Below, in pieces: positions 8,952-26,988 of a stretch of 32,000 nucleotides of DNA (positions are counted from its first letter, which is position 1; every line of letters starts with the position of its first letter). This DNA comes from Megasphaera elsdenii DSM 20460 (GTDB taxonomy: Bacteria; Bacillota; Negativicutes; Veillonellales; Megasphaeraceae). The translations under genes were made by a program, and so were the position numbers. The notes under the pieces were generated by a model. The model made no database searches. It was not told the origin of the DNA and worked only from the letters and a program-made list of their open reading frames with translations. The stretch covers positions 1,890,001 to 1,922,000 of the forward strand of contig NZ_CP027570.1 of NCBI RefSeq assembly GCF_003010495.1, written 5' to 3'.

Positions 8952-8956
8952 CAGGA

Positions 8957-9022: not shown

Positions 9023-9039
9023 AATTCAAGGAGGTAACA

Positions 9040-11193: not shown

Positions 11194-11198
11194 GGCTT

Positions 11199-11768: not shown

Positions 11769-11795
11769 GCTCCCCTATTAGGGGAGCCTTTTTTT
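11769..11795 (+). terminator. terminator closing a highly structured dut-nudix spacer
   Basis: gctcccct-att-aggggagc (11769-11787) is followed by T7 (11789-11795). A near-twin hairpin cctcccct-gat-aggggagg lies at 11686-11704. Confidence 0.8.
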
Positions 11796-11801
11796 GAAAG
11801 G

Positions 11802-12374
11802 ATGATGAATCAAGTGAGTATCAGCAAGGAAACACTCGTTTCTCGTAAAGAAATCATGAAGGGCCGGGTCCTCCACGTTACGGTCGATACCGTTTCCATC
11901 GACGACGGCCAGGGCGGCGAAAAGAAGACGGCCACGCGCGAAGCGGTCTGGCATTTCGGCGCCTGCGCCATCCTGCCGCTGACCGATGACGGCAAGATCA
12001 TCCTCGTCCGCCAGTACCGTTACGCAGCGGCTCAGGCCATGCTGGAAGTGCCGGCCGGGAAGATCGAACACGACGGCGAATCACCCGATTACTGCGCGGC
12101 CCGGGAACTGGAAGAAGAAGCCGGCGTCACGGCTTCGGAAATCCTGCCCTTAGGCTATACGTATACGTCGCCGGGCTTCTGCAGTGAACGGATTTATCTC
12201 TATCTGGCCCGAGGGCTCCAGAAAGGGAAGCAGCACCTCGATGATGACGAGTTCATGAACATCGAATACTATACGCCCAAGGAAATGGAAGACCTCATCG
12301 ACCAGAACGAAATCACCGATGCCAAGACCATCGCAGCCTTTGAAAAAGCCCGCAAATATCTGCCGGGATTATAA
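11802..12374 (+). CDS. Nudix hydrolase, ADP-ribose pyrophosphatase-like
   Basis: The Nudix box is GKIEHDGESPDYCAARELEEEAG. The start is ambiguous (ATG 11802 or 11805, or GTG 11814) because the AAAGGA SD abuts 11802. Confidence 0.85.
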   Translation: MMNQVSISKETLVSRKEIMKGRVLHVTVDTVSIDDGQGGEKKTATREAVWHFGACAILPLTDDGKIILVRQYRYAAAQAMLEVPAGKIEHDGESPDYCAARELEEEAGVTASEILPLGYTYTSPGFCSERIYLYLARGLQKGKQHLDDDEFMNIEYYTPKEMEDLIDQNEITDAKTIAAFEKARKYLPGL

Positions 12375-12386
12375 GGAGGGAATTTT

Positions 12387-13559
12387 ATGAAATTCAATCG
12401 TATCATCGTTATCGTCACGGACAGCGTCGGCGCCGGCGCTGCACCGGACGCTGAAAAATTTGGCGACAAAGGAGCCGATACGTACGGCCACATCGATGCC
12501 AATGTACCTTTGAGCGTGCCCAATCTGCGCCGTCTGGGCTTGGGCCGCGTGGCTCATATCCATGCCGAAGCAACAGACGTCATCGGCTCATATGGCCTCA
12601 TGCAGGAAATCTCGGCCGGCAAGGATACGACCAGCGGCCATTGGGAATTCATGGGCAACCCCGTAGAAAATCCCTTCCCGACGTTTCCCGACGCCTTCCC
12701 GCCGGATTTGTTGAAAGCCTTTACGGAAAAGACGGGCTACGGCTACATCGGCAACGAAATCGCGTCGGGTACGGAAATCATCGAACGCCTGGGGCCGGAA
12801 CACTTCCGGACGGGCCTGCCCATCGTCTATACGTCGGCAGACAGCGTTTTCCAGATTGCCGCTCACAACGATGTCATTCCCTTGGAAGAATTGTACCGCA
12901 TCTGCGACATTACGCGCCGCGAAGTCTGCGTCGGCCCTTATGAAGTAGGGCGCATCATCGCCCGGCCTTTCGTCGGGACCCAGGGCCACTTCGTCCGCAC
13001 CGGCGACCGCCGCGACTACAGCCGGCTGCCCAAGCGGAAAATGGTCTTTTCCTACTTGTCCGAAGCGGGCTATGCCGTCGTCGGCGTCGGCAAGATCGGC
13101 GACATCTATGCCCATATCGGCCTGACCGAATCGTACCATACGGCCAATAACCATGAAGACATGGAAGCCTTGCGGACTCAGCTGGCAGTCCATCGGAAGG
13201 ATAAGGGCCTGCTCATGGCCAACTTCGTCGACTTTGACAGCATGTACGGCCACCGCCGCAACGTCAAAGGCTATGCGGACTGCCTGGAAGCTTTTGACCA
13301 GGAACTGGGCCAGCTCTTGACAGAAATCCATGACGACGAACTGCTGGTCATCACGTCGGACCACGGCAACGACCCGACATGGCATGGCACAGACCATACG
13401 CGTGAACGGGTACCGCTCCTGGTCTACAGCCCGGCTCTGAAGGCTTCTGTCGACTTGGGTATCCGCCAGACCTATGCCGATTTGGGCATGACGATCATGG
13501 ATAATTTTGGACTGACAGGCCTTGAATTCGGTACCAGCTTTTTATCAGAACTGAGGTGA
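12387..13559 (+). CDS. deoB: phosphopentomutase
   Basis: MKFNRIIVIVTDSVGAGAAPDAEKFGDKGADTYGHI, plus SDHGNDPT near the C-terminus. The RBS is AAGGAGGG. Confidence 0.95.
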   Translation: MKFNRIIVIVTDSVGAGAAPDAEKFGDKGADTYGHIDANVPLSVPNLRRLGLGRVAHIHAEATDVIGSYGLMQEISAGKDTTSGHWEFMGNPVENPFPTFPDAFPPDLLKAFTEKTGYGYIGNEIASGTEIIERLGPEHFRTGLPIVYTSADSVFQIAAHNDVIPLEELYRICDITRREVCVGPYEVGRIIARPFVGTQGHFVRTGDRRDYSRLPKRKMVFSYLSEAGYAVVGVGKIGDIYAHIGLTESYHTANNHEDMEALRTQLAVHRKDKGLLMANFVDFDSMYGHRRNVKGYADCLEAFDQELGQLLTEIHDDELLVITSDHGNDPTWHGTDHTRERVPLLVYSPALKASVDLGIRQTYADLGMTIMDNFGLTGLEFGTSFLSELR

Positions 13560-13563
13560 TCCT

Positions 13564-14868
13564 ATGTGGCCCATCGACTGCATCGAACACAAGCGGGACG
13601 GCAAAGTCCTGACTAAAGAGGAAATTACGCGCTTCATCGACGATTATACGGCCGGCCGCATCGCTGACTATCAGGCCGCAGCCTGGCTCATGGCCATCTA
13701 TTTCCAGGGCATGACCTATGAAGAAACGAAGGAACTGACCCTGGCTATGGCTCATTCCGGCGATATGGTCGATTTGTCGTCCATTCCGGGCATCAAAGTC
13801 GACAAGCACAGCACCGGCGGCATTGCCGATACGACGACGCTCATCGTGGCGCCGTTGGTAGCGGCAGCCGGCGTCCCCGTGGCCAAGATGAGCGGCCGCG
13901 GCCTGGGATTTACCGGCGGTACGGCGGATAAACTGGAATCCATCCCCGGCTTCCACGTTGTCCTGCCGGAAGAAACCTTCCTGGAACAGGTGCGCCGCAT
14001 CGGCTTGTCCCTCATCACCCAGTCCGGCGAAATCGCGCCGGCGGATAAACTGCTCTATGCCCTGCGCGACGCGACGGCGACCGTTGAGAGCATCCCCCTC
14101 ATTGCCAGCTCGATCATGAGCAAGAAAATCGCTTCCGGTGCCGACGCCATCGTCCTCGATGTCAAGTACGGTGACGGCGCCTTCATGAAGACCAAAGAAC
14201 GGGCGCGGGAACTGGCTAAGACCATGGTCGGTATCGGCAATCTCGCCGGCCGGCCGACGCGGGCTGTCGTCACCTCCATGGAAGCGCCTCTCGGCACGGC
14301 CATCGGCAACTGCCTGGAAGTCGATGAAGCCGTCGAAGCCCTCTCCGGTAAAGGCGGCCGCCGCCTGATGGAAGTCGTCGAAGCCATCGGCGCCCAGATG
14401 CTCCTCGTCGGCGGCAAAGTAAGAGACGAAGGGGAAGGGCGGGCCCTGATTCGGGACCTCGTCGCGTCCGGCAAAGGCCTGGCGAAATTCAGAGAATTCG
14501 TCAAAGCCCAGGGCGGCAGCACATCGTGGATTGGCAAGCGGCCCCTCACCAAGGCACCCCAAGTCTTTACGGCGGTCTGCACCGATGAAGGCTACATCAC
14601 GCGCATCGACGGCCGGGCCCTCGGTGAAATTGCCATGGCCATGGGCGCCGGCCGGGCCCGCAAAGAAGACAAAATCGACCCGATGGTCGGCATCCGCCTG
14701 TTCAAGGAACTCTACGACCCGGTCCGTCCTGGCGAAGCCTTGTTCACCCTGTACGGCAAGGAAGGCGCCGATATGATGGCCCTGGCCCAGCAGGTCGCCG
14801 ACCACATCATCGTCACGCCCGACCAGGCAGACACCATCGAACCCGTCGTCAGTGAAGTGATAGTATAA
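13564..14868 (+). CDS. pdp: pyrimidine-nucleoside (thymidine) phosphorylase
   Basis: Motifs KHSTGGIADTTTLIVAPLVAAAGVPVAKMSGRGLGFTGGTADKLESIPGF. The RBS is GAGGTGA. Confidence 0.95.
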   Translation: MWPIDCIEHKRDGKVLTKEEITRFIDDYTAGRIADYQAAAWLMAIYFQGMTYEETKELTLAMAHSGDMVDLSSIPGIKVDKHSTGGIADTTTLIVAPLVAAAGVPVAKMSGRGLGFTGGTADKLESIPGFHVVLPEETFLEQVRRIGLSLITQSGEIAPADKLLYALRDATATVESIPLIASSIMSKKIASGADAIVLDVKYGDGAFMKTKERARELAKTMVGIGNLAGRPTRAVVTSMEAPLGTAIGNCLEVDEAVEALSGKGGRRLMEVVEAIGAQMLLVGGKVRDEGEGRALIRDLVASGKGLAKFREFVKAQGGSTSWIGKRPLTKAPQVFTAVCTDEGYITRIDGRALGEIAMAMGAGRARKEDKIDPMVGIRLFKELYDPVRPGEALFTLYGKEGADMMALAQQVADHIIVTPDQADTIEPVVSEVIV

Positions 14869-14869
14869 A

Positions 14870-14920
14870 GTTTGTAGTTTGTAGTTTACAGTGTAGGGGC
14901 GCCCATGCGGGGCGCCCGCC
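14870..14920 (+). repeat. REP-like GTAG hairpin preceded by three GTTTGTA-type heptamers
   Basis: GTTTGTA GTTTGTA GTTTACA (14870-14890) is followed by GTGTAGG. The GTAG is at 14893-14896 and the hairpin GGGGCGCCC-ATGC-GGGGCGCCC runs to 14920. Confidence 0.8.
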
Positions 14921-14927
14921 TGAAAGG

Positions 14928-16319
14928 ATGTCCATGAAAGAATTACGCCATATCCCCGTCCAGAAGGGGAAAACCTATGACATATCCATTGCCCGCCTGG
15001 GTACCAGTGGCGAAGGCGTCGGCCGTTACGAAGGCTTTACGATCTTCGTGCCCTTCGCCTTGCCAGGCGAACAGGTCCGGGCCCGCATTACCCTGGTGAA
15101 GAAAAATTATGCCACAGCGGCTTTAGTCGAGGTCTTGAAGCCTTCGCCGGACCGGATTCAGCCCCAGTGTCCCGTCTACGACCGTTGCGGCGGCTGTCAA
15201 CTCCAGCACCTCAGTTATGAAGGAGAATTGAAGGAAAAGCGCCAGCAAGTCCGGGATGCCCTGGAACGCATCGGTCACTTGCAACATATCGATGTCTTGC
15301 CGACTTTAGGCGCTAACACGCCTTGGCATTACCGCAACAAGATGCAGTTTCCCGTCGCCGCTGCCGGAAAGGGGAAAGTCGCCATCGGCTGTTTTGCTGC
15401 GGCTACGCACGAAGTCATCGACGTGACGGACTGCGCCATCCAGAAAGAAGGCAACAACGCCATCGTCGCCGTCGTCCGCCAGTGGATGAAGGACTTCAAG
15501 ATTCCCGCCTATGACGAAGACGCCCGGACGGGCATCGTCCGCCACATCATGGGCCGCGTCGGCGTCCATACCGGCGAAATCATGGTCTGCCTGATCACGG
15601 CCTGCGATATGGTGCCACACATGAAAGATTTGGTCCAGCGCCTGCGCCGGGATATCCCTGGTCTGACCAGCGTCGTCCAGAACGTCAACAAGCGCCATAC
15701 TAACGTCATCTTAGGGCCCAAAACGAAGACCGTCTACGGCAAAGGGACCATCCACGACTCCATCGGCCCTTTGACCTTCCACATTTCAGCGCAGTCCTTC
15801 TTCCAGGTCAACAGCGAACAGGCCCAGCGCCTCTATGAAACGGCCCTCGATTTCGCCGACCTCAAAGGCGGGGAAACCGTGGCCGATGTCTACTGCGGCA
15901 CCGGGACCATCACCCTGTTCCTGGCCCAGAAAGCCAAACAAGTCTACGGCATCGAAATCGTCGCCCCGGCTATTCGTGACGCCGTTCGCAATGCCAAAGA
16001 CAACCACGTCGGCAACGCCCAGTTCATCTTAGGCGATGCTATCTATAAATTGCCGGAACTCATCAAAAACGGCATCCGTCCCGACGTCATCGTCCTCGAC
16101 CCGCCCCGGGCCGGCTGCGGTGAACCCGTCCTCAAAGCCATCGCCCAGAGCAAACCCAAACGCGTCGTCTACGTCTCCTGCAATCCGGCCACCCTGGCCC
16201 GCGACCTGGCCTACCTGGACCAGCACGGCTACCATACCGCTAAAGTACAGCCTGTAGACATGTTCCCGCGGACCCACCATGTTGAGTCAGTAGCATTGAT
16301 GTCAAGAGAAGAAAAATAG
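14928..16319 (+). CDS. rlmD: 23S rRNA (uracil-5-)-methyltransferase, RumA/RlmD family
   Basis: It has an N-terminal TRAM-like region, the Fe-S cysteines CPVYDRCGGCQLQH, the SAM fold DVYCGTGTITL and DPPRAGC, and a C-terminal VDMFPRTHHVESV. The start could also be ATG 14934. Confidence 0.92.
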   Translation: MSMKELRHIPVQKGKTYDISIARLGTSGEGVGRYEGFTIFVPFALPGEQVRARITLVKKNYATAALVEVLKPSPDRIQPQCPVYDRCGGCQLQHLSYEGELKEKRQQVRDALERIGHLQHIDVLPTLGANTPWHYRNKMQFPVAAAGKGKVAIGCFAAATHEVIDVTDCAIQKEGNNAIVAVVRQWMKDFKIPAYDEDARTGIVRHIMGRVGVHTGEIMVCLITACDMVPHMKDLVQRLRRDIPGLTSVVQNVNKRHTNVILGPKTKTVYGKGTIHDSIGPLTFHISAQSFFQVNSEQAQRLYETALDFADLKGGETVADVYCGTGTITLFLAQKAKQVYGIEIVAPAIRDAVRNAKDNHVGNAQFILGDAIYKLPELIKNGIRPDVIVLDPPRAGCGEPVLKAIAQSKPKRVVYVSCNPATLARDLAYLDQHGYHTAKVQPVDMFPRTHHVESVALMSREEK

Positions 16320-16327
16320 GCGAAAAT

Positions 16328-16348
16328 CCCGTATTTACGGGCTTTTTC
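16328..16348 (+). terminator. rlmD terminator
   Basis: cccgta-tt-tacggg is followed by ctttttc. Confidence 0.75.
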
Positions 16349-16411
16349 GGATATTGATTATTTAGGTCCATATTTGTAAAATGGCCTGTAAAACTGTGTT
16401 TTTAGCACACC

Positions 16412-16513
16412 ATGGATGAAGATTTTCTACCTCGGGGCTTCAATATGGATGTTAAAATGGGGAAATTCCAGGTTGGGGCTTTAAGATGGATGTGAAAAAA
16501 TTCAATATAAGAC
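16412..16513 (+). repeat. tandem direct repeat of about 40 bp, with three ATGGATG cores
   Basis: GGGGCTTCAATATGGATGTTAAAATGG (from 16434) matches GGGGCTTTAAGATGGATGTGAAAAAAT (from 16475). ATGGATG occurs at 16412, 16445 and 16486. Confidence 0.7.
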
Positions 16514-16515
16514 AG

Positions 16516-16561
16516 AATAAGAGCAGGCGCCCCATCACTTGGTGGAGCGCCTGCTCTTATT
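16516..16561. other. 15-bp perfect GC-rich inverted repeat in an AT-rich context
   Basis: aataagagcaggcgc (16516-16530) pairs with gcgcctgctcttatt (16547-16561) around a 16-nt loop. No adjacent T run is present on either strand, so it is not a canonical terminator. Confidence 0.6.
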
Positions 16562-16650
16562 CGTTTGCCAGAACGTAAAATCATTTCATGTCCTTCTTAT
16601 ATAGCAAATTATTATATATGACACTAAATTGTGATTAAAATTACTCTAAT

Positions 16651-16679
16651 TTGCAAATAAAAAACATAAATGATAAAAT
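16651..16679 (+). promoter_or_regulatory. promoter of the exported-protein operon
   Basis: TTGCAA (16651-16656), 17 nt, TAAAAT (16674-16679), with an extended-10 TG at 16671-16672. Confidence 0.6.
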
Positions 16680-16722
16680 TAAATAAATATTATCGTGATA
16701 TTTATTGTTGGGAGGGCAGTTT

Positions 16723-17313
16723 ATGAAAAGTATTAAAAAAATTCCATTAATTGTAGCAACGGCATGTATGATTTGCTTACCTTTTTGTACGAGTCATGCA
16801 ATTACTTACATTCCAAGTTCAGAATCAGATGGTTCCTATGAAGCGGGTCAAGCTGCCGGATCTCTTTTAGGAGCGTTGTTTAGTCGGAATCGTCGACCTC
16901 ATATTAATGTGCATAAGCAGTATGTATACGCAGGGAGCAACGGTTCCTCTGCTTTCTACATAGACTTATCATCTGCTAAATCTATAAAGAAGACAGATAC
17001 ATTCAAATTGGCATCGGCTGATTTTATTTATGTTGATTATACGAAAGAACAAATTTATAAGATAAAAAATCATATTTCATACGATGTAAGTAGCCAAGTT
17101 GCTAGAGTTTCTTTAGCCTCAATGAGCACATTCGATTATAAAGGAAAATTGTTACAGGGGCCTGCAGAGGGAAATGGTCAATTTTCAGATGTAAATCCGC
17201 AAGGTCCTACGGCTGCTGCTGTGAATACGGTTTATAACAAGCTGTATGGGATGGCTTTCTATTATGATTCTTCGATTCCCGTATTAACAAAAACAGGTGC
17301 CTTGGTTGATTAA
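16723..17313 (+). CDS. exported protein of unknown function (signal peptide)
   Basis: ATG 16723 lies behind GGGAGGG. The N-terminus is MKSIKKIPLIVATACMICLPFCTSHA-ITYIP. I recognise no family. Confidence 0.7.
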   Translation: MKSIKKIPLIVATACMICLPFCTSHAITYIPSSESDGSYEAGQAAGSLLGALFSRNRRPHINVHKQYVYAGSNGSSAFYIDLSSAKSIKKTDTFKLASADFIYVDYTKEQIYKIKNHISYDVSSQVARVSLASMSTFDYKGKLLQGPAEGNGQFSDVNPQGPTAAAVNTVYNKLYGMAFYYDSSIPVLTKTGALVD

Positions 17314-17327
17314 AGGATGTGATTTAT

Positions 17328-17840
17328 ATGTCAGTGCGACTAAATAAATTAAGTATTTTTTTTCTTGTGTGTGTAGTGTTTTTTTCTTTTACATTACAGG
17401 CATTTGCTGCTGAAAAACTAGATCAAAAATATATGGGCTTAGGAGATTTAACATGGGGGAGACCTCTTTATGATATTGAAGGCGAATATGATGTTAAATT
17501 CGTAAATAAAAGAACATCAAGTATAGCGTCGACTTCTGTAGAAACCTATTTAATTAGAATTCCAGAAGCCAATGGAAACATGTGTTTTTATGGGCCGCTT
17601 GTAGCTTCTGCTGAGTTTGCGAATGGAAAATTGTTTGCTATAATTATCCCTTTTAAGGGTTATGATGACGAACTCTACAAATTGACCGAAAAATTTGGTC
17701 ACCCACCATATGGAGATAGTTCTAATACAGTAGGCTGGCGTGGTGAACGTATATTGATTTTCTTAAAACGGGAACAAAGTGATTTTGATGGCACTTTAAT
17801 ATTAATAATGCCAGGAGCACAAGATTTTCTTTATAAATAA
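17328..17840 (+). CDS. exported protein of unknown function (signal peptide)
   Basis: ATG 17328 lies behind AAAGGA. The N-terminus is MSVRLNKLSIFFLVCVVFFSFTLQAFA-AEK. It starts 15 nt after the previous gene. Confidence 0.7.
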   Translation: MSVRLNKLSIFFLVCVVFFSFTLQAFAAEKLDQKYMGLGDLTWGRPLYDIEGEYDVKFVNKRTSSIASTSVETYLIRIPEANGNMCFYGPLVASAEFANGKLFAIIIPFKGYDDELYKLTEKFGHPPYGDSSNTVGWRGERILIFLKREQSDFDGTLILIMPGAQDFLYK

Positions 17841-17867
17841 ACTATTTGTAATAGGAGGATAATTAAT

Positions 17868-18371
17868 ATGAAGAAAATACTCGTTTTAATAAGTATGTTG
17901 TTCATTCTTGTAAGCGCGAATGCATACGCTTCTTGGGAATATATGGGCAATGACTCTTCTGGGAATCAAGAGTATATATTGCCAGAAAGTTCACAAGTTA
18001 TAAAATTTACACCTAAACAATTTGAATGGACAGTACAAGTAAAAGAAATATATAGTCGTGAAGGAAAAAGTGATCTTATTAGTAATTATGCGTTAAAAGG
18101 CGTTAAAATCAAAGGTATCGAATTAGCGGATTACGAAATTAAGACTTATCATTTTAAAGCCTGGAAAGATCAAGTAGGGTTTAGAGTGGATAATTCCTAT
18201 GGATACAACAATAATGGTTATCAAGTATGTACCTTTAAAGGGTGGTACAGTTTTGAGCCTTTTGAATCGAGATCTCTTGTTGGTTTATTTTCATACAGAG
18301 CATTAAATTATTTGGAAACTTTGAACAATATTGACTATTTTAAAATTTTAATAGAGAACAATAAAAAATAA
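17868..18371 (+). CDS. exported protein of unknown function (signal peptide)
   Basis: ATG lies behind AGGAGG. The N-terminus is MKKILVLISMLFILVSANAYA-SWEY. Confidence 0.7.
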   Translation: MKKILVLISMLFILVSANAYASWEYMGNDSSGNQEYILPESSQVIKFTPKQFEWTVQVKEIYSREGKSDLISNYALKGVKIKGIELADYEIKTYHFKAWKDQVGFRVDNSYGYNNNGYQVCTFKGWYSFEPFESRSLVGLFSYRALNYLETLNNIDYFKILIENNKK

Positions 18372-18410
18372 ATTGCGTAAAAAATTCATGAATTATAAAG
18401 GAGAAATTTT

Positions 18411-18740
18411 ATGAAAAGAATTGCATTAATTCTAGGATTGATTCTCGCCTTATTTACTTTTTCTGCTGGCGCTTCTGCATGTCCGTATTGTGGAGCTCCA
18501 GGTTATTTCACAGGGGAAAGAGGAAACAATTATAGTAATTCGTGGGATGTATATCAATGTTCGAATGGTCATCGATATGATGTCCCTAATACTCTTTCTG
18601 GCAGTACTTCTGGCCCAAGAAATAATTGTCCGTATTGTGGAGCTCCAGCTTATTTTACAGGGGAAAGAGGAAATAATTACGGCAATTGGTGGGATGTATA
18701 CCAATGTTCGAATGGGCATCGATATAATGTTCCTGACTAA
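18411..18740 (+). CDS. small exported protein with a duplicated CPYCG...CSNGH module
   Basis: ATG lies behind AAAGGAG. The N-terminus is MKRIALILGLILALFTFSAGASA-CPYCG. Two 36-aa repeats lie at 18480-18587 and 18627-18734. Confidence 0.7.
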   Translation: MKRIALILGLILALFTFSAGASACPYCGAPGYFTGERGNNYSNSWDVYQCSNGHRYDVPNTLSGSTSGPRNNCPYCGAPAYFTGERGNNYGNWWDVYQCSNGHRYNVPD

Positions 18741-18808
18741 AAATATTAACTAGGCGTGGGCGTACTAAGTTGGTTTGATGCAATAAAAAATTAGACGATT
18801 TATAGAAA

Positions 18809-18856
18809 AGCGATGAACCTATGAAAAGATTTGCTCATAAGTTCATCGCTCTTTTA
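18809..18856. terminator. hairpin between the convergent exported-protein operon and the recombinase genes
   Basis: agcgatgaac (18809-18818) pairs with gttcatcgct (18841-18850) and is followed by cttttac. Confidence 0.65.
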
Positions 18857-18872
18857 CATTATAAAAATACAC

Positions 18873-20435
18873 TTATACCGTAACTTCGATGCCGGATTTA
18901 AATTTGACTAGAAAATGGTCGGGAAATATGGTGATTTTCTCGATGATTTTCCGAATGGTAATTTCGTTAAATTCTGTGATCTGCGTAGGATGTTCTCTAA
19001 TGAATTTTTTCAAGTCTTCGAGGCGTTTGATATTTGCCTGCTGGCTCAGATTATTTTGTTCAGCTTCTTCCTGTTGTTCCCGAAGGCGAAAGATTTCATT
19101 GGCAATGGCATTATAGTTCTGGCGATTCGTAGCATGCTGAATGAGCTCTTGCTGTAATTCGTCCAGGCGTTTTTGGATACATTCTGGTGAAAGTGTATCG
19201 TTTTTTATAATGGTCTTGGTGATGTTTTTCTGCATCTGCAGCAAGAAGGTGTGGCTATCAGAAAGTATGTGGTTCATGGCCTTCATTGTGATTTCCTTCA
19301 GTAGATTTTCGTTCACTGTTCGATTGGTACAGTTTATCTCGGCGCCTCTTGGATCTAGGCGGCTGATGCAGCGCCAGACGATAGATTTGTGACCTCGATT
19401 GTTCCAATGGACGCGACGGTACAATTCGCCGCAAACGCCGCAGTAGGTAATTTGGGCAAAACAGTTATTACTGGAAAAACTATGCCTTTGGCCGGAAGGG
19501 CTGATATGGACAATGCGACGGCGAACTAACTCAGCTTGTACCTGGAGAAATATGTCTTTAGGAATAATGGCCTCATGATCATTTTCAACATAGTATTGCG
19601 GGACGAAACCGTTATTCTTGACACGTTTTTTGGTGAGAAAATCGACGGTATATGTTTTTTGCAAAAGCGCATCACCCATATACTTTTCGTTCCGCAAGAT
19701 TTTATTAATCGTACTGTCATGCCATTTTTTTCGTCCGGCGCCAGTGAGGATGCCATCTGCTTCTAAATGCTTTCCTATTTTTTTCATACTATAGCCTTCG
19801 AGGTATTCGCGATAAATGCGCTTGACGACTTCTGCTTGTTCCGGATCGATGATAAGATGGCCGTTTTCGTCTTTGGTATAACCGAGAAAATGTTTATGAT
19901 TGACCTGTACTTTACCTTGCTGGTAACGGTACTGGAGGCCTAGCTTTACATTTTGGGAAAGAGATTCTGATTCTTGCTGGGCTAAACTGGCCATGATGGT
20001 GATCAGCACTTCACCTTTGGCGTCCATCGTGTTGATGGATTCTTTTTCAAAAAGGACTGGAATATTTTTTTCTTTAAGCTGACGGATGTATTTCAGGCAA
20101 TCGAGGGTATTGCGGGCGAAGCGGCTGATGGACTTGGTGATGATCATGTCGATGTTGCCAGCCATACATTCCTGGATCATACGGTTGAATTCATTGCGCT
20201 TTTTCGTGTTTGTACCCGAAATGCCGTCATCAGCAAAGATGCCGGCGAGAACCCAATCCGGATGGCTGCTGATGAATTCTTTGTAATGCGAAACTTGCGT
20301 TTCATAACTTGTTTCTTGTTCATCCGAATCGGTACTGACCCGGCAGTAGGCAGCTACACGCAGCTTCTTTTGTTCCGGTTCTTTTTCGATATTTCCCATG
20401 CGTTTTCTGGCGGGGATGATCATAACTTTTTTCAT
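18873..20435 (-). CDS. large serine recombinase (third gene of the triplet)
   Basis: The resolvase catalytic N-terminus is [21 protein letters not shown], with DDGISGT and SRFARN. It has a recombinase domain, a zinc ribbon [25 protein letters not shown] and a coiled-coil tail. Its start overlaps the upstream stop (TAATG). Confidence 0.93.
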
Positions 20436-20749
20436 TATATTGCCTCGCTTTCAATGAGACTATAGAGATATTCTGCCTGCAGCCTCGGATCGTCATAGTG
20501 TTCTTCTGCCTTATCGAAGGTCTCCTGATCGATGATGGCCGGGTAGAAATCGTCGCCGAGGTAATGCCTGTTTTGCATCAGGCGCTTTGCCGAGCTGTGG
20601 TAGGTCTCGATCCCTGCCTCGATGGCCGCTTTTGACTGTGCCATCCCAGCAAAGTAATTCTCATAAAGTTTCCTGATCTTAGCGGCTTCTTCTTCGTGAA
20701 TCACAGCGCAGCCGTTTTCGATTCTGTAGCCGTATGGTGTGTGCCCCAT
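20435..20749 (-). CDS. recombinase-domain-only protein lacking the catalytic serine domain
   Basis: 104 aa. [33 protein letters not shown] aligns with the post-catalytic segments PPYGYDWNGEQMVVNPEQAAVVKEIF and [26 protein letters not shown] of its two neighbours. It has no YxRVS motif. Confidence 0.7.
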
Positions 20750-20753
20750 GTTC

Positions 20754-22313
20754 TCACTTCCTTTCCCTGAGCGTCAGACCGCATTTGAGCTCGAAGCGGA
20801 TGTCATTTCTGGAATGTACGATGATCCGCTTTACAAACCTTTCAAAAAGATCGACGTCGAACTCGTGCAGCATGGCACTCTTTTCCGCAAAGTGCATCAG
20901 CGCCGTGGCTTCGGTGACCTTTGTCACATCCCCGGAGACCGTATTCTTTAGTGCGTCGATCTCATCCCGGAAGGTGTCCGCCTGCGAGAGCAGCTCGTTC
21001 GTCTCCTGACTGTAGAGCACCGGGTCGATGATGCCTTGCGTCATGAGCTTGGTGAGCGTTTCTCTCTTCTCGGTGTTCTGCGTCAGCAGGGTCTGTATCT
21101 GTTGAATGCGCCGGAGAGAATCATCTGTCGACACATTCTTAATTGCTTCCAAGTAGGGCTTCAGGATCAGCCGATGTGAGAAGATCAGCTTGTTCATCAT
21201 TGTGATGAATGCCAGCTTCAGAGCCTCATCCTTCACAAAAAGCATGTGGCATCTGTTCTTATCCACGATGTGGGTGTTGCAGCACCATGCAGCGTATTTG
21301 TATCCGGTGCAGCTGTGAATCCGGCGCTTGAAGGTGTCGTCGCATTCTCCGCAGATGATTTTTCCGGAGAAAACGTAGCGGTTCTGGTATTTTTCGGTGC
21401 CTTTGACGACACCTTTCTCTGACGCCCGCTGTTTCACAAAAGCCTGTGCCGCTTCAAAATCCTCCCGACTGATGATCGGCTCGTGGTGATCCCTGACCAT
21501 GTACTGCGCCTGCTCACCGTGGTTGCTATGCCGGACAAATTGTGAATCCGAGTAGGTTTTCTGGAAAAGGCAGTCGCCGACGTACTTTTCGTTTGAAAGC
21601 ATCCCGCGAATGGTCGTGGCCGTCCATCGTCCGCCTCGCTTGGAAGGAACACCGCGCTGGTTCAGGTCATCCGCAATGGCGTGTGTGCCTTTGCCGGAGA
21701 GCAGGGCTGTGAAGATTTCCTTAACCACAGCCGCCTGTTCCGGATTGACGACCATCTGCTCACCATTCCAGTCGTAACCGTAGGGCGGGTAACTGCATTT
21801 GAAGGTTCCATTCTCGAAGCGCTTTTGGATTGACCATTTGCTGTTTTCCGAAATGGAAACTGACTCGCCTTCGGCCATGCTGGAGAGGATCGCCAGAAAA
21901 AGCTCGCTCTCCATCGAGCCGGTGTTGATGTTTTCTTTTTCAAAGAAAATGGGAATGCGCAGGGCGAGCAGCTTTCTAACCAGCTCTAAGCAGTCTGTTG
22001 TATTCCTACTGAAGCGGCTGATGGACTTTGTGATGATGAAATCCACCTTACCGGCCTTGCAGTCGTCGATGAGCCTCAAAAGCTCCGGACGCTTATCCTT
22101 CTTGGTGCCGGTGATGCCTTCGTCGTAGTAGAGGCCTGCAAACTCCCAGTCATCACGGGAAGTGATGTAATTTTCGTAGTGAGTTTTCTGAGCCTCAAGG
22201 CTTTCAAGCTGTGCATCGGAATCCGTAGAGACGCGGCAGTAAGCGGCTACCTTGATCTTCTTGAGCTTCACTTTTGCGCTCGTCGCTTGCTCTATTTTCG
22301 TTACTTTTCTCAA
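20754..22313 (-). CDS. large serine recombinase (first gene of the triplet)
   Basis: [28 protein letters not shown] and SRFSRN, plus a zinc ribbon CGECDDTFKRRIHSCTGYKYAAWCC. The next start lies 4 nt after its stop. Confidence 0.93.
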   Translation of the reverse strand: MRKVTKIEQATSAKVKLKKIKVAAYCRVSTDSDAQLESLEAQKTHYENYITSRDDWEFAGLYYDEGITGTKKDKRPELLRLIDDCKAGKVDFIITKSISRFSRNTTDCLELVRKLLALRIPIFFEKENINTGSMESELFLAILSSMAEGESVSISENSKWSIQKRFENGTFKCSYPPYGYDWNGEQMVVNPEQAAVVKEIFTALLSGKGTHAIADDLNQRGVPSKRGGRWTATTIRGMLSNEKYVGDCLFQKTYSDSQFVRHSNHGEQAQYMVRDHHEPIISREDFEAAQAFVKQRASEKGVVKGTEKYQNRYVFSGKIICGECDDTFKRRIHSCTGYKYAAWCCNTHIVDKNRCHMLFVKDEALKLAFITMMNKLIFSHRLILKPYLEAIKNVSTDDSLRRIQQIQTLLTQNTEKRETLTKLMTQGIIDPVLYSQETNELLSQADTFRDEIDALKNTVSGDVTKVTEATALMHFAEKSAMLHEFDVDLFERFVKRIIVHSRNDIRFELKCGLTLRERK

Positions 22314-22364
22314 GGGAACTCCTCCTTTCCGTACGTCTATACATCACTCTAAAACGGCTACATA

Positions 22365-22571
22365 TCAAGGTATTTTTGGCATTATTTCCGCGAACAGAGG
22401 GGAGAAAGTTTCCCGATTGATGGCGGTTAATTTGTTGAATTCAGCCACAGAAATCAGGCCGTCATCAAGCATGCCTTTTGCGATGTCCTGTGCCCGGCGA
22501 TAGTCCAGATCACCCTGAATCCGCTCTTGCGTGAAATATCCAGATTGAGCATTTGTGTTTTCGTTTGGCAT
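22365..22571 (-). CDS. small hypothetical protein upstream of, and co-oriented with, the recombinases
   Basis: I place the start at ATG 22571 (MPNENTNAQSGYFTQERIQ...) behind GGAGGTGG. The segment GLISVAEFNKL loosely resembles a SHOCT-type helix. The family is not recognised with confidence. Confidence 0.5.
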   Translation of the reverse strand: MPNENTNAQSGYFTQERIQGDLDYRRAQDIAKGMLDDGLISVAEFNKLTAINRETFSPLFAEIMPKIP

Positions 22572-22640
22572 AACATATCCACCTCCAGTTTCCACTGGAG
22601 ATTGGCGGGCGTTTTGAGCGGAGGATTTTTCACATAAACT

Positions 22641-22678
22641 AAAAAAGCCTGCGGGTATTCCGAAGAACACTCGCAGGC
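22641..22678 (-). terminator. minus-strand terminator upstream of the recombinase operon
   Basis: gcctgcg (22647-22653) pairs with cgcaggc (22672-22678). The A6 at 22641-22646 is a T run on the minus strand. Confidence 0.65.
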
Positions 22679-22698
22679 ATAGCAGATTGGATATTTAG

Positions 22699-22881
22699 TT
22701 ATTTCACTCTGATCTTCCAGCCGGTCAGGATGAGGTTGACGTTTTTTGATAAGTGTCGGGTTGAGCTTCTGGATTGCGAGGCCTGCGTGGATAGCGCGGT
22801 AGATTGTCGGAACGCTGACGAGATGGCAGTCATGCCCAGTGGCACATAGGCTCCCTTTTTGTTATAGGTAGTTCTCTTCAA
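22699..22881 (-). pseudogene. decayed HTH-type gene fragment (sigma-70 region-4-like or transposase HTH-like)
   Basis: The listed 60-aa ORF has a TTG start only 6 nt from a TGCTATAAT box and a low-complexity sequence. An alternative frame reads GHDCHLVSVPTIYRAIHAGLAIQKL, which is HTH-like. This suggests a frameshifted relic. Confidence 0.3.
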
Positions 22882-22930
22882 ACACCATTATAGCAAAGAA
22901 GTCTATGTGTCATTTTAATTTGGTTGTCTA

Positions 22931-23050
22931 GGAGCTGTTATCGATAGGTGTGCGGAGTTGATCGCCCAATTGGTCGCGGAGCCGGAAAATCTCATCAGCG
23001 ATGGCATTGTATGGCTCTGATGTGGCGGTTGATAGAGTAAATATATTTCT
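22931..23050 (-). pseudogene. fragment of a serine-recombinase C-terminal coiled coil
   Basis: The minus-strand translation ...TATSEPYNAIADEIFRLRDQLGDQ... matches [20 protein letters not shown] of the 520-aa recombinase. It is bounded by stops and has neither the N-terminal nor the C-terminal remainder. Confidence 0.6.
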
Positions 23051-23078
23051 CTATCAGCCGTTTTTTTGCTTATAAGTA

Positions 23079-23106
23079 TTGACATATCGTGAAATATGGA
23101 TATAAT
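23079..23106 (+). promoter_or_regulatory. consensus-like promoter placing the TSS at the ATG of the ArsR-like gene
   Basis: TTGACA (23079-23084), 16 nt, TATAAT (23101-23106). ATG 23113 is 7 nt after the -10 and has no SD. Confidence 0.65.
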
Positions 23107-23112
23107 AAATGT

Positions 23113-23427
23113 ATGGATAAGATTGAAATTTTTAAAGCACTATCAAATGAAACCCGGCTCAATATTATTGAGTGGTTGAAGGAACCGGAGAAAAACTTTC
23201 CGCCGCAGGGAGGTCATTTTGATGATATGGTGGATCTGAAAGGCGGTGTGTGTGTTGGAAGCATCCGCGACAAAGCCGGGATATCACAGTCAACCGTATC
23301 TCATTACCTAGATATGCTGCAAAAAGCAGGCTTGCTTCTTTCCGAAAGGCACGGAAAGTGGACATATTACAGACGGAATGAAGAGACTCTCGCTGCGCTG
23401 GCAGACTACTTCGGTCACGAAATTTAA
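23113..23427 (+). CDS. ArsR/SmtB-family winged-helix regulator (island copy, probably leaderless)
   Basis: MDKIEIFKALSNETRLNIIEWL..., with the HTH ISQSTVSHYLDMLQKAGLL and then HGKWTYY. The GTG 23089 start of the listed ORF lies inside the promoter, so ATG 23113 is preferred. Confidence 0.85.
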   Translation: MDKIEIFKALSNETRLNIIEWLKEPEKNFPPQGGHFDDMVDLKGGVCVGSIRDKAGISQSTVSHYLDMLQKAGLLLSERHGKWTYYRRNEETLAALADYFGHEI

Positions 23428-23528
23428 GTTGTGCATAGATTAGACGGGATGAAGATCCCGTTTAATTTAAACCATCACATATCGACAAAGCGAGACATAA
23501 AGATATATAGAAACGAGGAGGAATTCGT

Positions 23529-24407
23529 ATGCATTTTTCATGTGGAATCGTCAGACCGCCTTATGAGGCTGGTTCCTGTTTTTTACAAGTAACGTCGGGT
23601 TGTTCGCATAATAAGTGCCGCTTTTGCACCTTTTACAAGGAAGCACCTTTTTCCGTATCTCCGGAGAGTGAGATACGGGAAGATCTTCAGGAGATCCGGG
23701 ATTCCGGATGGGAGGTAAAGCGGATTTTTCTGCAGGGGGCAGATCCGTTCCTGCTGAGCTACGACAGGCTTAAAAGAATCATGGACCTGATAAAAGAATA
23801 CCTGCCCTGGGGTGTTTCCGTCGGCGGATATGGCAGGGTGGATAGTGTAAGGAACAAGTCTGTAGGTGAGCTGAAGTCGTTGAAAGAGATGGGATACGAC
23901 ATGATCGTATTCGGAATCGAGTCGGGCGATGATGCTGTCCTCGATAAGATGAACAAGGGCTATCATGCCAGTGATATAGTGGAACAGCTCTCCAAGCTGG
24001 ATGAAGCAGGAATGCATTATTCCGTCATCTTCTTATACGGACTGGGAGGCCATGATTATGGTATGGGGCATGCCATTAAAACGGCAGAAGTGTTGAACCA
24101 TCTGTCGCCCGTCAGGGTGCTGGCTTCCGGACTCTCCATCTTCCCTGATACGCCGCTTATGGAAGAAGTGAGAAGGGGTGAGTTCGTAGAGGCTACAGAG
24201 ACAGAAAAGATACAGGAACTGTATACCTTTGTGAAGACGCTTGATATCCACACGCTGCTGGATGCGACGAATGTCTCCAACATGATGCCGGTATATGGAC
24301 ATCTTCCAGAGGACAAAGAGAAGATACTGGCGATGCTCAAACAGGGTGCAGACGAACAGGGGGAAGAGCGATTGCGGATGCGAAGAGACAGCATGAGAAG
24401 CCTGTGA
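23529..24407 (+). CDS. radical SAM enzyme of unknown function
   Basis: The CxxxCxxC cluster is CSHNKCRFC at residues 25-33, and the remainder has the length of a TIM-barrel-type fold. The RBS is GAGGAGG. A hairpin lies at about 23445-23465 between the regulator and this gene. Confidence 0.88.
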   Translation: MHFSCGIVRPPYEAGSCFLQVTSGCSHNKCRFCTFYKEAPFSVSPESEIREDLQEIRDSGWEVKRIFLQGADPFLLSYDRLKRIMDLIKEYLPWGVSVGGYGRVDSVRNKSVGELKSLKEMGYDMIVFGIESGDDAVLDKMNKGYHASDIVEQLSKLDEAGMHYSVIFLYGLGGHDYGMGHAIKTAEVLNHLSPVRVLASGLSIFPDTPLMEEVRRGEFVEATETEKIQELYTFVKTLDIHTLLDATNVSNMMPVYGHLPEDKEKILAMLKQGADEQGEERLRMRRDSMRSL

Positions 24408-24480
24408 CCAGGATAAAAAGGCGGTATTTAGCACATCCGGAATTGGAAGTAACGGCGTTATTATAACTTCAAACTCAAAA

Positions 24481-24510
24481 AGCGCTGTCTTCATGCGACA
24501 GCGCTTTTTT
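24481..24510 (+). terminator. terminator after the radical SAM gene
   Basis: agcgctgtc-ttcatgc-gacagcgct is followed by a T run through 24510. Confidence 0.85.
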
Positions 24511-24660
24511 CGGACTCAAATGCGGCGTTCCGCACGCCGTTCGTCATAAATTCCGGCTGTGCATAGGATTCACACGGGGCAGAAAGGCTTTGGGCGTCCC
24601 CTATGAAATCGCATACTGGTGATGGAAAAGAACGCAGATTGCAAAAAAACGGCCATATAA
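24505..24660 (-). repeat. second copy of the interspersed repeat of about 160-190 bp seen at 2400-2596
   Basis: Shared blocks are TTCGGACTC..ATGC.GC, CGTCATAAATTCCGG(T/C)TGTG(T/C)A(C/T)AGGATTCA, a degenerate REP hairpin ending GGCGTCCCCTAT, ATCGCA.AC.GG.GATG.AAAA and GAACGC. Confidence 0.7.
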
Positions 24661-24774
24661 GAATATTTCTATGTTGCAAATACGACGGATGACCTTGCCG
24701 CTATCTGTTATACTCAAGATGTTCCAAGAAACCAACGCATGAAAATAGATTATGCGAGAAAAGGAAGCGATACT

Positions 24775-25470
24775 ATGATTACGAAAGACATGACTTTAGC
24801 TGACGTTGTAAAAGCTCATCCGAATACGATTGGATTCCTGAATGGATTGCATCTTGATTACTGCTGCGGCGGACATGATCCTATTGCCATGGCTGTCCGT
24901 GAAAAGGGTCTGGACGTGGATAAATTCCTGGCCGAACTCAATCAGGCAGCTGCCAAAAAGGCGACGCAGCGGGACGTCCATGATGATATCGAAGCGTTCA
25001 AGACGCTTAAAGTCACGGAGATGCTTGACGATTTGGAAGCGACGCATCACGTGACAGACCGCAGACTCATGGCTGAAACAGAAGAACTCCTCAACAAGAT
25101 TCTCATCGTCCATTATCCGCATCATGGTAAAATGCTCACGCGCCTCCATCATCTCTATGCCGGCCTGAAAGCAGAACTGGAAGAACATTTTGCCAAGGAA
25201 GAACAGCTCGTGTTCCCGTTGATGCGCCAGCATCCGCATCCGGACAGCCAGACGCTGTCACTTATCCAGGACCTGGAAACGGAGCACACCGGTGCCGGCG
25301 ACGTCATCAAAGAAATCCAGGAACTGACGGATAACTTCACGCCGCCAGCAGATGCTTGCCCGACCTTCCGCCACACGTATGTTGTCATGGAACAGCTCTT
25401 TGACGACATCTTCATCCATATCTTCAAGGAAAACTCCATCGCCTTCCCTGAATACGCCGAACAAGTCTAA
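24775..25470 (+). CDS. ric: iron-sulfur cluster repair di-iron protein (RIC / ScdA / YtfE family)
   Basis: I place the start at ATG 24775 (MITKDMTLADVV) behind AAGGAAG. It has the ScdA_N motif LDYCCGG and hemerythrin-like His/Glu motifs (HHVTDRRL, HFAKEEQLVFP, ETEHTG). An extended -10, TGTTATACT, lies at 24706-24714. Confidence 0.9.
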   Translation: MITKDMTLADVVKAHPNTIGFLNGLHLDYCCGGHDPIAMAVREKGLDVDKFLAELNQAAAKKATQRDVHDDIEAFKTLKVTEMLDDLEATHHVTDRRLMAETEELLNKILIVHYPHHGKMLTRLHHLYAGLKAELEEHFAKEEQLVFPLMRQHPHPDSQTLSLIQDLETEHTGAGDVIKEIQELTDNFTPPADACPTFRHTYVVMEQLFDDIFIHIFKENSIAFPEYAEQV

Positions 25471-25481
25471 CGATAAGAAAA

Positions 25482-25531
25482 AATCACCTGTTCCAACGGT
25501 CTGATTCGGATCTTTGAGACAGGTGATTTTT
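25482..25531 (+). terminator. ric terminator
   Basis: aatcacctgt (25482-25491) pairs with acaggtgatt (25519-25528) and is followed by ttttt. The loop is large. Confidence 0.7.
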
Positions 25532-26759: not shown

Positions 26760-26988
26760 GTATATTGAACCTCTCCCGCTTATAGAAGCGGGAGATTCTT
26801 GAGAAGATTGCGGTTTAAGTTTCCTCCTAAAATCAGGATAGCCTTATTCTCAAAGGGCTGTCCAAAAGCCTCTTACACAGTCCCTCGAAATCGAAGTTCT
26901 GCTTACTTTTACGGAGTATGTTGGCGGCGCCGTTGATGTCGGCATTGGCCGTCCTGCCGTCAGCGAAACGGTACAGGCCGCGCCGGAT
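26760..26988 (-). mobile_element. 3' remnant of an IS200/IS605-family element (TnpB C-terminus plus right-end region)
   Basis: The minus-strand frame from 26988 to the stop at 26833-26835 reads IRRGLYRFADGRTANADINGAANILRKSKQNFDFEGLCKRLLDSPLRIRLS. This is the characteristic TnpB/OrfB tail (AD.N.A.NI). Downstream of the stop is the hairpin ctcccgctt-ataga-aagcgggag (26773-26794), where an omega-RNA or right-end structure would be expected. Confidence 0.7.

Follow-up and report, generated by a model that had tools for sequence, protein, structure and literature searches.

The base composition of the chromosome of the gut bacterium Megasphaera elsdenii changes abruptly at the end of rlmD (also known as rumA), which raises the question of what the low-G+C DNA at this locus is, how it arrived, and whether it can still leave. 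In the window (the whole 32,000-nt stretch of strain DSM 20460 analyzed here), G+C is 55%–61% left of 16.3 kb, drops to 32%–35% at 16.5–19 kb, is 43%–52% across the recombinase genes, and 47%–50% right of 24.5 kb. The original prediction had proposed an AT-rich island at 16350–24435 and a comparison with genomes that lack it, and we find two such empty sites. On a metagenome contig from a near-identical strain (L121), whose flanks are 95.9% and 99.1% identical to those of the window, rlmD is joined directly to the ric flank (junction 16286/24461); in another Megasphaera species (G016), rlmD is joined to window position 24463 onward and the whole island is absent. The joined rlmD and ric flanks thus place the island at about 16287–24460 (8.2 kb); the ends given earlier are off by no more than about 65 and 25 bases, respectively. 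Strains differ in its presence: L120 has the island and L121 does not. Judged by its composition and by the empty sites, the low-G+C island is real and horizontally acquired, brought by an element with large serine recombinases, as had been predicted.

The island begins within rlmD itself, not past the rlmD terminator as first thought. The rlmD gene (14928–16319, + strand) encodes the 23S rRNA m5U1939 methyltransferase, with Pfam TRAM and methyltransferase domains. An alignment of relatives and the empty site in L121 show that it is host-encoded to about 16286 and that its last 11 codons (SVALMSREEK and the stop) are supplied by the element, as is the terminator at 16320–16350; the native tail, as in L121, is HVECVALLTRAHL followed by a stop codon. 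Set against L121 and G016, the window thus has an insertion in the 3′ end of rlmD with a replacement C terminus taken from the element. The left attachment site, attL (16277–16310, + strand), consists of a host half, CCATGTTGAG, and then the P′ half of the element, GAGTCAGTAGCATTGATGTCA (16284–16304), with the crossover probably within or near GTTGAGT (16280–16286). Its junction sequence is present in a single copy in the window. The junction pattern CAyGTnGAG..GTATTGATGTCA is common to 44 out of 44 occupied rlmD sites, in very different hosts across the Firmicutes, and in Megasphaera at least three different P′ arm types use the rlmD site. Inward of the junction lies a conserved prophage left arm (16287–16568; no strand assigned), recognized by alignment with prophage arms, by blastn, and by an inverted repeat, and homologous on alignment to prophage arms of M. 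elsdenii, M. hominis, and RUG237. Besides the replacement rlmD tail and the terminator, this arm contains phased sub-repeats of the ATGGATG type (about 16412–16500) and a GC-rich hairpin (16515–16562), which in related prophages lies 5 nt past the SR2 stop codon.

At the other side of the AT-rich DNA is a recombinase module of four genes, all on the − strand, whose proteins all match PHROG families. The first gene encodes a SHOCT_2-domain protein (22365–22670; Pfam PF20612; phrog_2996) and keeps its place upstream of SR1 in the majority of loci. SR1, the inner large serine recombinase (20754–22313; 519 amino acids; Clostridial-phage type), and SR2, the outer one (18873–20435; 520 amino acids; Megasphaera-phage type; phrog_95 integrase), are both full-length open frames with a catalytic motif and with Pfam Resolvase, Recombinase, and zinc-ribbon domains (Zn_ribbon_recom in SR2), so that a large serine recombinase of this architecture stands next to one junction. 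That both frames are open indicates either recent decay or that the genes are kept for some reason. SR1 has 85%–95% amino acid identity to its counterparts at L051, L036, and L061, and 69% to those of Megasphaera prophages; SR2 falls within a block that is 94% identical at the nucleotide level to prophage L132. Between the two is a small protein of 104 amino acids (20435–20749; phrog_7701 family), in which Pfam finds part of the Recombinase domain (PF07508) and no Resolvase (catalytic) domain. Members of this family normally have 137–138 amino acids; the window copy has a 102-nt (34-codon) internal deletion, which is in frame and so does not prove loss of function. The gene is also chimeric, its 5′ part being of Clostridial-phage type and its last ∼45 nt of Megasphaera-phage type. 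The serine-recombinase triplet described earlier therefore holds as an arrangement, in that three genes run in one direction, separated by 4 nt at one boundary and overlapping by 1 nt at the other, but only two of the three are serine recombinases.

The predicted tie between this module and rlmD extends to distant Firmicutes: rlmD is convergent with the module and downstream from it in 44 out of 80 loci, and in 38 of the 51 that have SR2 identity of ≥62% and enough flanking sequence. Because the rlmD association tracks SR2 identity, SR2 is likely to be the rlmD-specific integrase. Some rlmD-linked loci (L071, L075, and L086) hold just the small protein and SR2, and these two together may constitute the rlmD-specific integrase. 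A more ambitious reading, which we offer tentatively and regard as doubtful, is that the four-gene unit (SHOCT, SR1, a 137-amino-acid partial-recombinase-domain protein, and SR2) would be an uncharacterized multi-component integration system dedicated to the rlmD tail. SR2 and the small protein would form its core, the latter as a new directionality or specificity factor derived from a recombinase; SR1 and SHOCT would add a second function, and the slot between SR2 and attL would be a general pick-up point for accessory genes. The roles proposed for SR1, SHOCT, and the small protein are those that gene order suggests.

In the window this slot, between the SR2 stop codon and its terminator hairpin, is occupied by AT-rich cargo (16569–18872, + strand; 33% G+C) with four open reading frames on the + strand (16705–17313, 17319–17840, 17868–18371, and 18411–18740). 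All four have signal-peptide-like N termini and a search for family matches returned none for any of them; the last contains an internal 108-nt duplication. An apparently intact Megasphaera prophage (L132, L134) has the same cargo in the same slot, and across other loci the contents are very varied, including resistance genes (erm and MFS) in L036. No second copy of the rlmD tail and no P′-like site flanks the cargo in the window, which argues that it is not a separate cassette there.

The right part of the island bears out the composite nature, with decayed debris on this side, that had been proposed. From 22300 to 22777 the sequence is colinear with Clostridial phages (88%–91% identity, blastn), and the homology ends inside an endolysin gene of which the last 26 codons (ending in NVNLILTGWKIRVK and a stop) remain at 22699–22777 (− strand; blastn, and BLASTP against the GH25-CHAP-CW_7-LysM endolysin of L036). 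The true break is at 22777/22778. Beyond it is a 41-nt scrap of another SR2-type recombinase gene (22971–23011, − strand; the YNAIADEIFRLR region), identified by translation, which by its 85%–97% identity to the SR2 genes of many loci is debris of a further element. An accessory block follows (23065–24461, + strand; annotated with Pfam and NCBIfam), with an ArsR-family regulator (23089–23427), a radical SAM protein (23529–24407), and a gene stub with a CGWC (thioredoxin-like) motif (24430–24461), all on the + strand. With 90.5% nucleotide identity to blocks beside an HTH_16 gene in other gut metagenomes, it is on this comparison a fragment of an unrelated module, and it has a 97-nt internal deletion at 24419/24430. 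At the right junction (24461–24510, + strand) host sequence picks up again at TTATAA, which is the final sense codon of native rlmD plus its stop, and continues with a 46-nt terminator-like host repeat (24465–24510) that is multi-copy in the genus.

Relative to the empty sites in L121 and G016, 27 nt of the native rlmD tail, which would be expected in attR, are deleted at this junction. We found no native B′ arm or P arm across the window, no second rlmD tail in the genome, and no other intact module elsewhere in the genome; an attR carrying the displaced native tail is thus absent from the window and from the rest of the genome, which marks the window copy as a decayed member of the rlmD-targeting serine-recombinase elements. 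One relative (G019) retains an intact attR. The short repeats proposed as junctions are chance matches. The left copy of TTTAGCACA (16401–16409) sits 115 bases into the conserved left arm and is missing from the sister prophages L132, L134, and L135, which are 89%–94% identical there; the right copy (24427–24435) arises from the 97-nt deletion in the accessory block; and a shared 9-mer appears between two such 200-nt stretches in 12% of shuffles. TATTTAG at 22692 lies inside the 22300–22777 block colinear with Clostridial phages, and the segment from 16.4 to 22.7 kb that was taken to be an intact element is a chimera, cut off inside the endolysin gene and lacking a right attachment site.

The relatives of the island are prophages. 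In M. hominis the replication genes DUF2800, Enc34 SSB, PolA, and D5 primase lie beside the module, in Weimeria a holin and an endolysin lie directly upstream of SHOCT, and deposited phage genomes, among them S. suis phages with "_rum" in their names, contain related modules. The L132/L134 prophage shares the cargo and SR2 with the island and retains both replication genes and a module without interruption; it is 94% identical to window 6717–20500, after which identity falls to 67%. Structural, lysis, and replication genes are contiguous with the integration module in G009, L036, L132, and L134; in the window such genes are gone except for the 26-codon endolysin stub, so that it holds a remnant and not a prophage. 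What had been called a minimal non-autonomous element is instead what is left of a prophage, of which the sister copies are complete.

On these alignments the island has been patched together from at least four pieces. A Megasphaera prophage lineage gave the left arm, AT-rich cargo, and SR2; a Clostridial-type phage lineage gave the small gene, SR1, the SHOCT gene, and the last 26 endolysin codons; and the 41-nt recombinase scrap and the unrelated ArsR/radical-SAM block are the other two. The Megasphaera/Clostridial crossover falls where the small gene is conserved, at its 3′ end. The island (about 16287–24460) is very probably what has been left behind by temperate phages that use the module SHOCT, SR1, small protein, and SR2 to enter the last codons of rlmD, and would now be fixed. 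Integration has set the phage left arm against rlmD, and the phage thereby supplies a substitute C terminus and terminator; the cargo occupies the slot where accessory genes usually lie, between SR2 and attL, and the module is a recombinant of Megasphaera-type and Clostridial-type phage lineages. Everything beyond the endolysin stub has been lost, the right attachment site and 27 nt of native rlmD tail with it, and the recombinase scrap and the ArsR/radical-SAM block now stand in its place. Loss of that site and tail should make precise excision impossible, and with the damage to the small gene it suggests that the island can no longer excise and has become a fixed genomic island.

Two intact large serine recombinase genes, an intact-looking attL, and the presence of the island in L120 but not in L121 might instead point to a minimal, non-autonomous, still mobile IME-like element made of cargo and recombinase triplet, bounded near 16.4 kb and near 24.4 (or 22.7) kb, that would move into and out of the rlmD site. 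We consider this highly improbable. An attR is lacking, with neither the P arm nor the native B′ arm present and the host target shortened by 27 nt; the repeats put forward as junctions match by chance; the right third is made up of a truncated endolysin, a recombinase scrap, and part of an unrelated block; the sister copies are full prophages; and the small gene is damaged. It is also very unlikely that the module has been domesticated and is retained by host use, such as cassette capture or exchange at the rlmD attL in trans or regulation of a nearby gene. Both recombinase frames are intact though other phage parts are lost, and the cargo of the SR2–attL slot is very varied between loci, which favors such a use; however, the same cargo is carried within whole prophages, the window has no second rlmD tail or P′-like site around it and no inverted repeats pointing to an invertible segment, and the island is dispensable, since a near-identical strain is without it.

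Within the preferred reading of a fixed phage remnant, either a recombinant phage integrated once or a tandem array collapsed by homologous recombination. Tandem prophages at rlmD, the Megasphaera type adjoining the gene and the Clostridial type distal, with recombination in the small gene deleting what lay between, are a real possibility that we would put somewhat below even, the alternative being a single, already recombinant phage. The site of the crossover (the small gene's conserved 3′ end), the further SR2-type scrap to the right, the three or more P′ arm types at the site in Megasphaera, and the tandem accretion documented at rum in streptococci (PMC5053989, PMC13651849) all fit such an array. 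Yet phage module shuffling before integration yields the same product, the scrap lies beyond the endolysin stub, where a simple two-element array would not put it, and no hybrid att site is left inside the island.

A well-known landing site for mobile DNA, rlmD has in the Megasphaera island a further member of the elements that target it. Like the island, the phi-m46.1-group and "_rum" prophages of streptococci (e.g., phi-SsuFJNP3_rum) are serine-recombinase temperate phages at the 3′ end of the same gene (rum/rumA); they carry accessory or resistance genes by the junction, and tandem and decayed forms are common (PMC5053989, PMC4288039, PMC13651849). phi-SsuFJNP3_rum has a small-protein and SR2 pair beside rum, 49% and 63% identical to the island's family. 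phi-m46.1 has two adjacent recombinase-like frames, its own recombinases being shorter, with ∼51% identity to the first 400 residues of SR2, and we found no homolog of the small protein in it. The island differs from these prophages in its host, a Negativicute, in being a remnant without phage genes in the window, and in its module of SHOCT, 519-amino-acid recombinase, recombinase-domain-only protein, and 520-amino-acid recombinase, convergent with rlmD.

The original prediction associated streptococcal triplets with integration at rumA; the literature has the reverse, with single serine integrases at rumA and triplets at mutT, traG, or hsdM (PMC4701971; PMC13089153). The single-integrase ICEs and IMEs at rumA, with Tn5252- and Tn1549-type conjugation modules (PMC4701971), share with the island the target gene and the swapping of its 3′ end for element sequence, whereas the island has two recombinases, two small genes, and no conjugation genes. 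In those ICEs the crossover is within the integrase gene, and rumA and int trade 3′ ends (PMC4701971); the island is not of this type, its SR2 stop codon being 2.5 kb from the junction (0.3–8.5 kb in relatives) and the SR2 C terminus conserved at full length. The ICE triplets (external, middle, and internal; PMC4701971, PMC13089153) likewise have co-directional recombinase-family genes at one element end, sometimes with cargo before the target gene. We rejected this class too: all three members there have a Resolvase domain, which the island's middle gene lacks, and their targets differ from rlmD, the target in the window and in 44 related loci.

SCCmec of staphylococci, with ccrA/ccrB at the 3′ end of rlmH (orfX), resembles the island in having two different large serine recombinases side by side, in inserting at the final codons of a gene for a 23S rRNA methyltransferase, and in the composite or decayed islands that accumulate at the site. 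It differs in target gene and recombinase family, and the carrier of the island is a phage, not a cassette; against the NCBIfam CcrA, CcrB, and CcrC models the island's recombinases score 73–140 bits with cut-offs of 700–900 (best 139.5 vs. 900). Phase-variation DNA invertases, which the original prediction had named as a case that would overturn it, are excluded: both proteins have ∼520 amino acids and integrase-type C-terminal domains and score 33–38 bits with the Mpi invertase model (cut-off 272), and we found no inverted repeats in the window suited to an invertible segment.

The island can thus be read as a dated succession of layers, left at a single hotspot by no fewer than three or four mobile-DNA events, with the prediction that it is now fixed. 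The rum/rumA/rlmD hotspot, mostly known from streptococci, is extended to prophages of Negativicutes and many Clostridia, and one recognizable integration module together with one junction motif (CAyGTnGAG / GTATTGATGTCA) is enough for an automated search to locate such prophages and to set the limits of both prophage and cargo slot. Serine integrases whose sites and directionality factors are defined serve as tools for genome engineering, and the recombinase-domain-only partner protein is the one component on which experiments might pay off.

The G+C profile of the window confirms the abrupt change in composition that had been claimed: G+C content is 55%–61% up to 16.3 kb, 32%–35% at 16.5–19 kb, 43%–52% across the recombinase genes, and 47%–50% to the right of 24.5 kb. 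Comparison with genomes lacking the island, as the original prediction proposed, reveals an empty site in another Megasphaera species (G016) and in a near-identical strain known from a metagenome contig (L121). In G016, rlmD (the rumA/rum homolog; 14928–16319, + strand) is joined straight to the flank of ric (window 24463 onward). In L121, which matches the window at 95.9% and 99.1% identity in the two flanks, the site is exactly empty: the native rlmD end reads ...CACGTTGAG TGCGTGGCCTTGCTGACACGAGCGCAC TTATAA and is followed by a 46-nt terminator-like repeat. The two sequences agree as far as GTTGAGT (16286), and agreement resumes at TTATAA (24461); the island therefore spans ∼16287–24460 (8.2 kb), and the native rlmD tail is short of 27 nt. 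A further metagenome contig (L120) carries the left junction and cargo as in the window, at 97% identity, so that the sampled strains include both carriers of the island and strains without it.

The left end of the island lies within rlmD and, from its sequence, has the character of a serine-integrase attL (element–host junction). The window, an M. elsdenii relative with both junctions (G019), and M. hominis (G009) have GAGTCrGTAGCATTGATGTCA in common at the rlmD end, even though their rlmD genes differ by 9%–19% at the nucleotide level; unoccupied relatives have GAGTsCGTGGCyTTGyTGAC. We fetched 80 loci by the protein of SR2, the outer large serine recombinase (520 aa; 18873–20435, − strand), and found an rlmD homolog downstream and convergent in 44 of them. 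All 44 show ...CAyGTnGAG followed by GTA(G/T)TATTGATGTCA and a short new C terminus, in host rlmD genes with identities to that of the window as low as 31%–46%. The 280 nt past the junction can be aligned to Megasphaera prophage left arms; they hold a GC-rich hairpin and phased sub-repeats of the (A/T)GATG type. The hairpin stands 5 nt past the SR2 stop codon in those prophages, and in the window the 2.3-kb AT-rich cargo fits exactly between it (16562) and that stop codon (18873). A 20-mer at 17701–17720 that matches the attB core at 16 of 20 positions is attributed to chance, because it is internal to a cargo ORF and is one of many pairs of this kind.

Other elements also occupy the rlmD site. 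Three Megasphaera metagenome contigs (L116, L119, and L124) carry a different element arm (P′), GAGTGCGTAGCCTTGATATCACrCAAGATGTAG, which brings the junction types at this site in the M. elsdenii group to at least three. Extra rlmD 3′ ends, 1.5 kb to ∼86 kb from the full gene, are found in genomes of the same order (G032:C2:172449–172643; G037:C16, 95849–95959 and 8736–8903; G023:C5:76692–77214), a sign that more elements, or arrays of cassettes, may be integrated at the site.

The repeats first put forward as junctions do not delimit the island. TTTAGCACA is present only at 16401 and 24427, and neither copy is at an island end. The left copy falls inside the conserved arm, and the sister Megasphaera prophages (L132, L134, and L135) lack it; the right copy bridges the point where 97 nt were deleted from an ArsR/radical-SAM block (TATTTAG joined to CACATCC). 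At least one 9-mer is shared between two such 200-nt stretches in 12% of shuffles. The partial copy TATTTAG at 22692, taken as the boundary of a second, decayed element, sits between the endolysin stop and the SHOCT gene, within a colinear phage block.

The recombinase genes belong to a module of temperate phages. It comprises a SHOCT_2 protein (22365–22670), the inner large serine recombinase SR1 (519 aa; 20754–22313), a 104-aa ORF that matches the Recombinase domain in part only (20435–20749), and SR2, all on the − strand. PHROG matches exist for all four module proteins: phrog_95 (integrase) twice, phrog_7701, which corresponds to a full 138-aa small protein, and phrog_2996, which is the SHOCT protein. 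In two sister prophage contigs from metagenomes (L132 and L134), rlmD is followed by four cargo genes as in the window (the first protein 98% identical), then by SR2, the small gene in intact form (138 aa), SR1, and SHOCT, with phage replication genes last. SHOCT in M. hominis is bordered by genes for a DUF2800 nuclease, an Enc34-type SSB, a family A polymerase, a D5-type primase, an SNF2 helicase, and a ParB-methylase; in Candidatus Weimeria (L036), the genes immediately upstream of SHOCT encode a holin and a GH25-CHAP-CW_7-LysM endolysin. Related modules are present in deposited phage genomes, including the S. suis “_rum” phages, in which the small-protein and SR2 pair adjoins the rum gene. 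The arrangement of SHOCT, recombinase, recombinase-domain-only protein, and recombinase is widespread. Our literature search found no paper on the pairing of SHOCT with serine recombinases or on the four-gene module, which may therefore be uncharacterised; we regard this as a lead rather than a result.

The cargo consists of four small ORFs with signal-peptide-like N termini and without a family match (16705–18740, + strand). As the same genes occur in the L132 and L134 prophages, they represent the accessory (“moron”) load of a Megasphaera prophage. The alternative that they form a separate cassette with its own rlmD tail was rejected, there being no second tail copy and the cargo lying inside whole prophages. 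The same slot in other loci holds an adhesin, a P-type ATPase, a MatE pump, a histidine kinase, a helicase, or a WYL protein, and the largest cargo ORFs are co-directional with rlmD in every locus sampled. In L036 the slot between SR2 and rlmD (11849–16633) encodes an erm-type rRNA adenine methylase, an MFS pump, and a PLD protein; these are candidates for resistance genes that form part of the accessory load of the phage. Homologs of the cargo proteins are few and located in variable regions of other bacteria (L125–L130); the first protein has very few. One relative of it (72%) is in a variable region near a Gp49/HTH pair and a STAND NTPase, with a partner of 109 aa, equal in length to the fourth cargo ORF; another (58%) is directly upstream of a ZorA/OmpA-type (Zorya-like) system.

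The copy in the window has a mosaic structure and is both a chimera and a remnant. L132 is 94% identical to the window over 6717–20500 and beyond that only 67%, and 22300–22777 is 88%–91% identical to Clostridial-type phages. At the protein level, SR1, SHOCT, and the small protein show 85%–97% identity to Clostridial-type lineages versus 54%–70% to Megasphaera prophages. DNA alignment places the lineage switch in a conserved stretch, the final ∼45 nt of the small gene; this gene has also undergone a separate 102-nt in-frame deletion with loss of 34 conserved residues. There is no other intact module copy in the genome. Colinear phage homology ends at 22777, within the last 26 endolysin codons (NVNLILTGWKIRVK and stop), and to the right of this stub lies a 41-nt scrap of another SR2-type gene (22971–23011). 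The remaining 1.4-kb block (23065–24461) ends exactly at the host junction and includes an ArsR-type regulator (23089–23427, + strand) and a radical SAM protein (23529–24407, + strand). It is 90.5% identical to an ArsR/radical SAM/CGWC-motif block that unrelated contigs from gut metagenomes carry beside an HTH_16 gene. That the ArsR/radical-SAM pair might be host genes lost from G016 was considered and rejected: the best homologs in the genus are only 60%–62% identical and at other loci, and the ∼90% identity to a module in unrelated contexts also argues against it. Similarly, 24430–24461 (HPELEVTALL and stop), which could pass for a divergent end of rlmD, is a stub: it belongs to the gene that elsewhere follows the radical SAM gene and begins MKAYYIFDSYCGWCYGF... 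(a thioredoxin-like CGWC motif).

The right attachment site has been lost. Using tblastn and DNA patterns, we found no second rlmD tail or native host arm (B′) in the window, and there is no second tail elsewhere in the genome. The intact attR of M. elsdenii (G019) reads TGACATTAAT...CCACGTGGAG, followed by the native tail; no P arm is present in the window, nor was one of the G019 type found at either candidate right end. For the M. hominis prophage, the patterns tried located no attR. In the window, the loss of attR would leave the island unable to excise precisely.

Beyond the island, the window has the 46-nt terminator-like repeat (CTTCAAACTCAAAAAGCGCTGTCTTCATGCGACAGCGCTTTTTTCGG; 24465–24510) and two other short repeats (24540–24650 and 26765–26800). 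Several Megasphaera genomes each contain dozens of copies of these repeats, which look like REP-type interspersed elements. The segment carrying ric (24461–25529; ric at 24739–25470, + strand) is 91% identical to G016, the neighboring rlmD only 77%. It has interspersed repeats on its flanks, in other species is on other contigs or far away, and may be a small repeat-bounded exchangeable cassette.

SR2 is probably the integrase that recognizes the rlmD tail, since rlmD linkage tracks SR2 identity: 38 out of 51 loci with SR2 identity ≥62% and ≥9 kb of flank are rlmD-linked, and none of eight below 62%. Some rlmD-linked loci (L071, L075, and L086) have only the small gene and SR2. The putative attP arms would be imperfect inverted repeats around CCACGT, and gene order suggests that the small protein and SHOCT could act as accessory or directionality factors.

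In streptococci and other Gram-positives, prophages of the phi-m46.1 group, ICEs, and tandem arrays are documented at the 3′ end of rum/rumA/rlmD, a known hotspot (PMC5053989, PMC4288039, PMC13651849). The association of recombinase triplets with rumA in the original prediction is the inverse of that published: The serine integrases that target rumA are single ones, and the targets of triplets are mutT, traG, or hsdM (PMC4701971, PMC13089153). The archetypal rum-integrating phage phi-m46.1 (W01, FM864213.1) has two adjacent recombinase-like frames (48090–50353), one with an internal TAG and the other of 466 aa, 51% identical to SR2 residues 2–398; we found no homolog of the small protein in this phage. 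In an Acidaminococcus prophage region, two serine recombinases adjoin the aci1 beta-lactamase gene (preprint, 10.1101/235788). The window holds a decayed member of the rlmD-targeting serine-recombinase prophages, in a Negativicute host.
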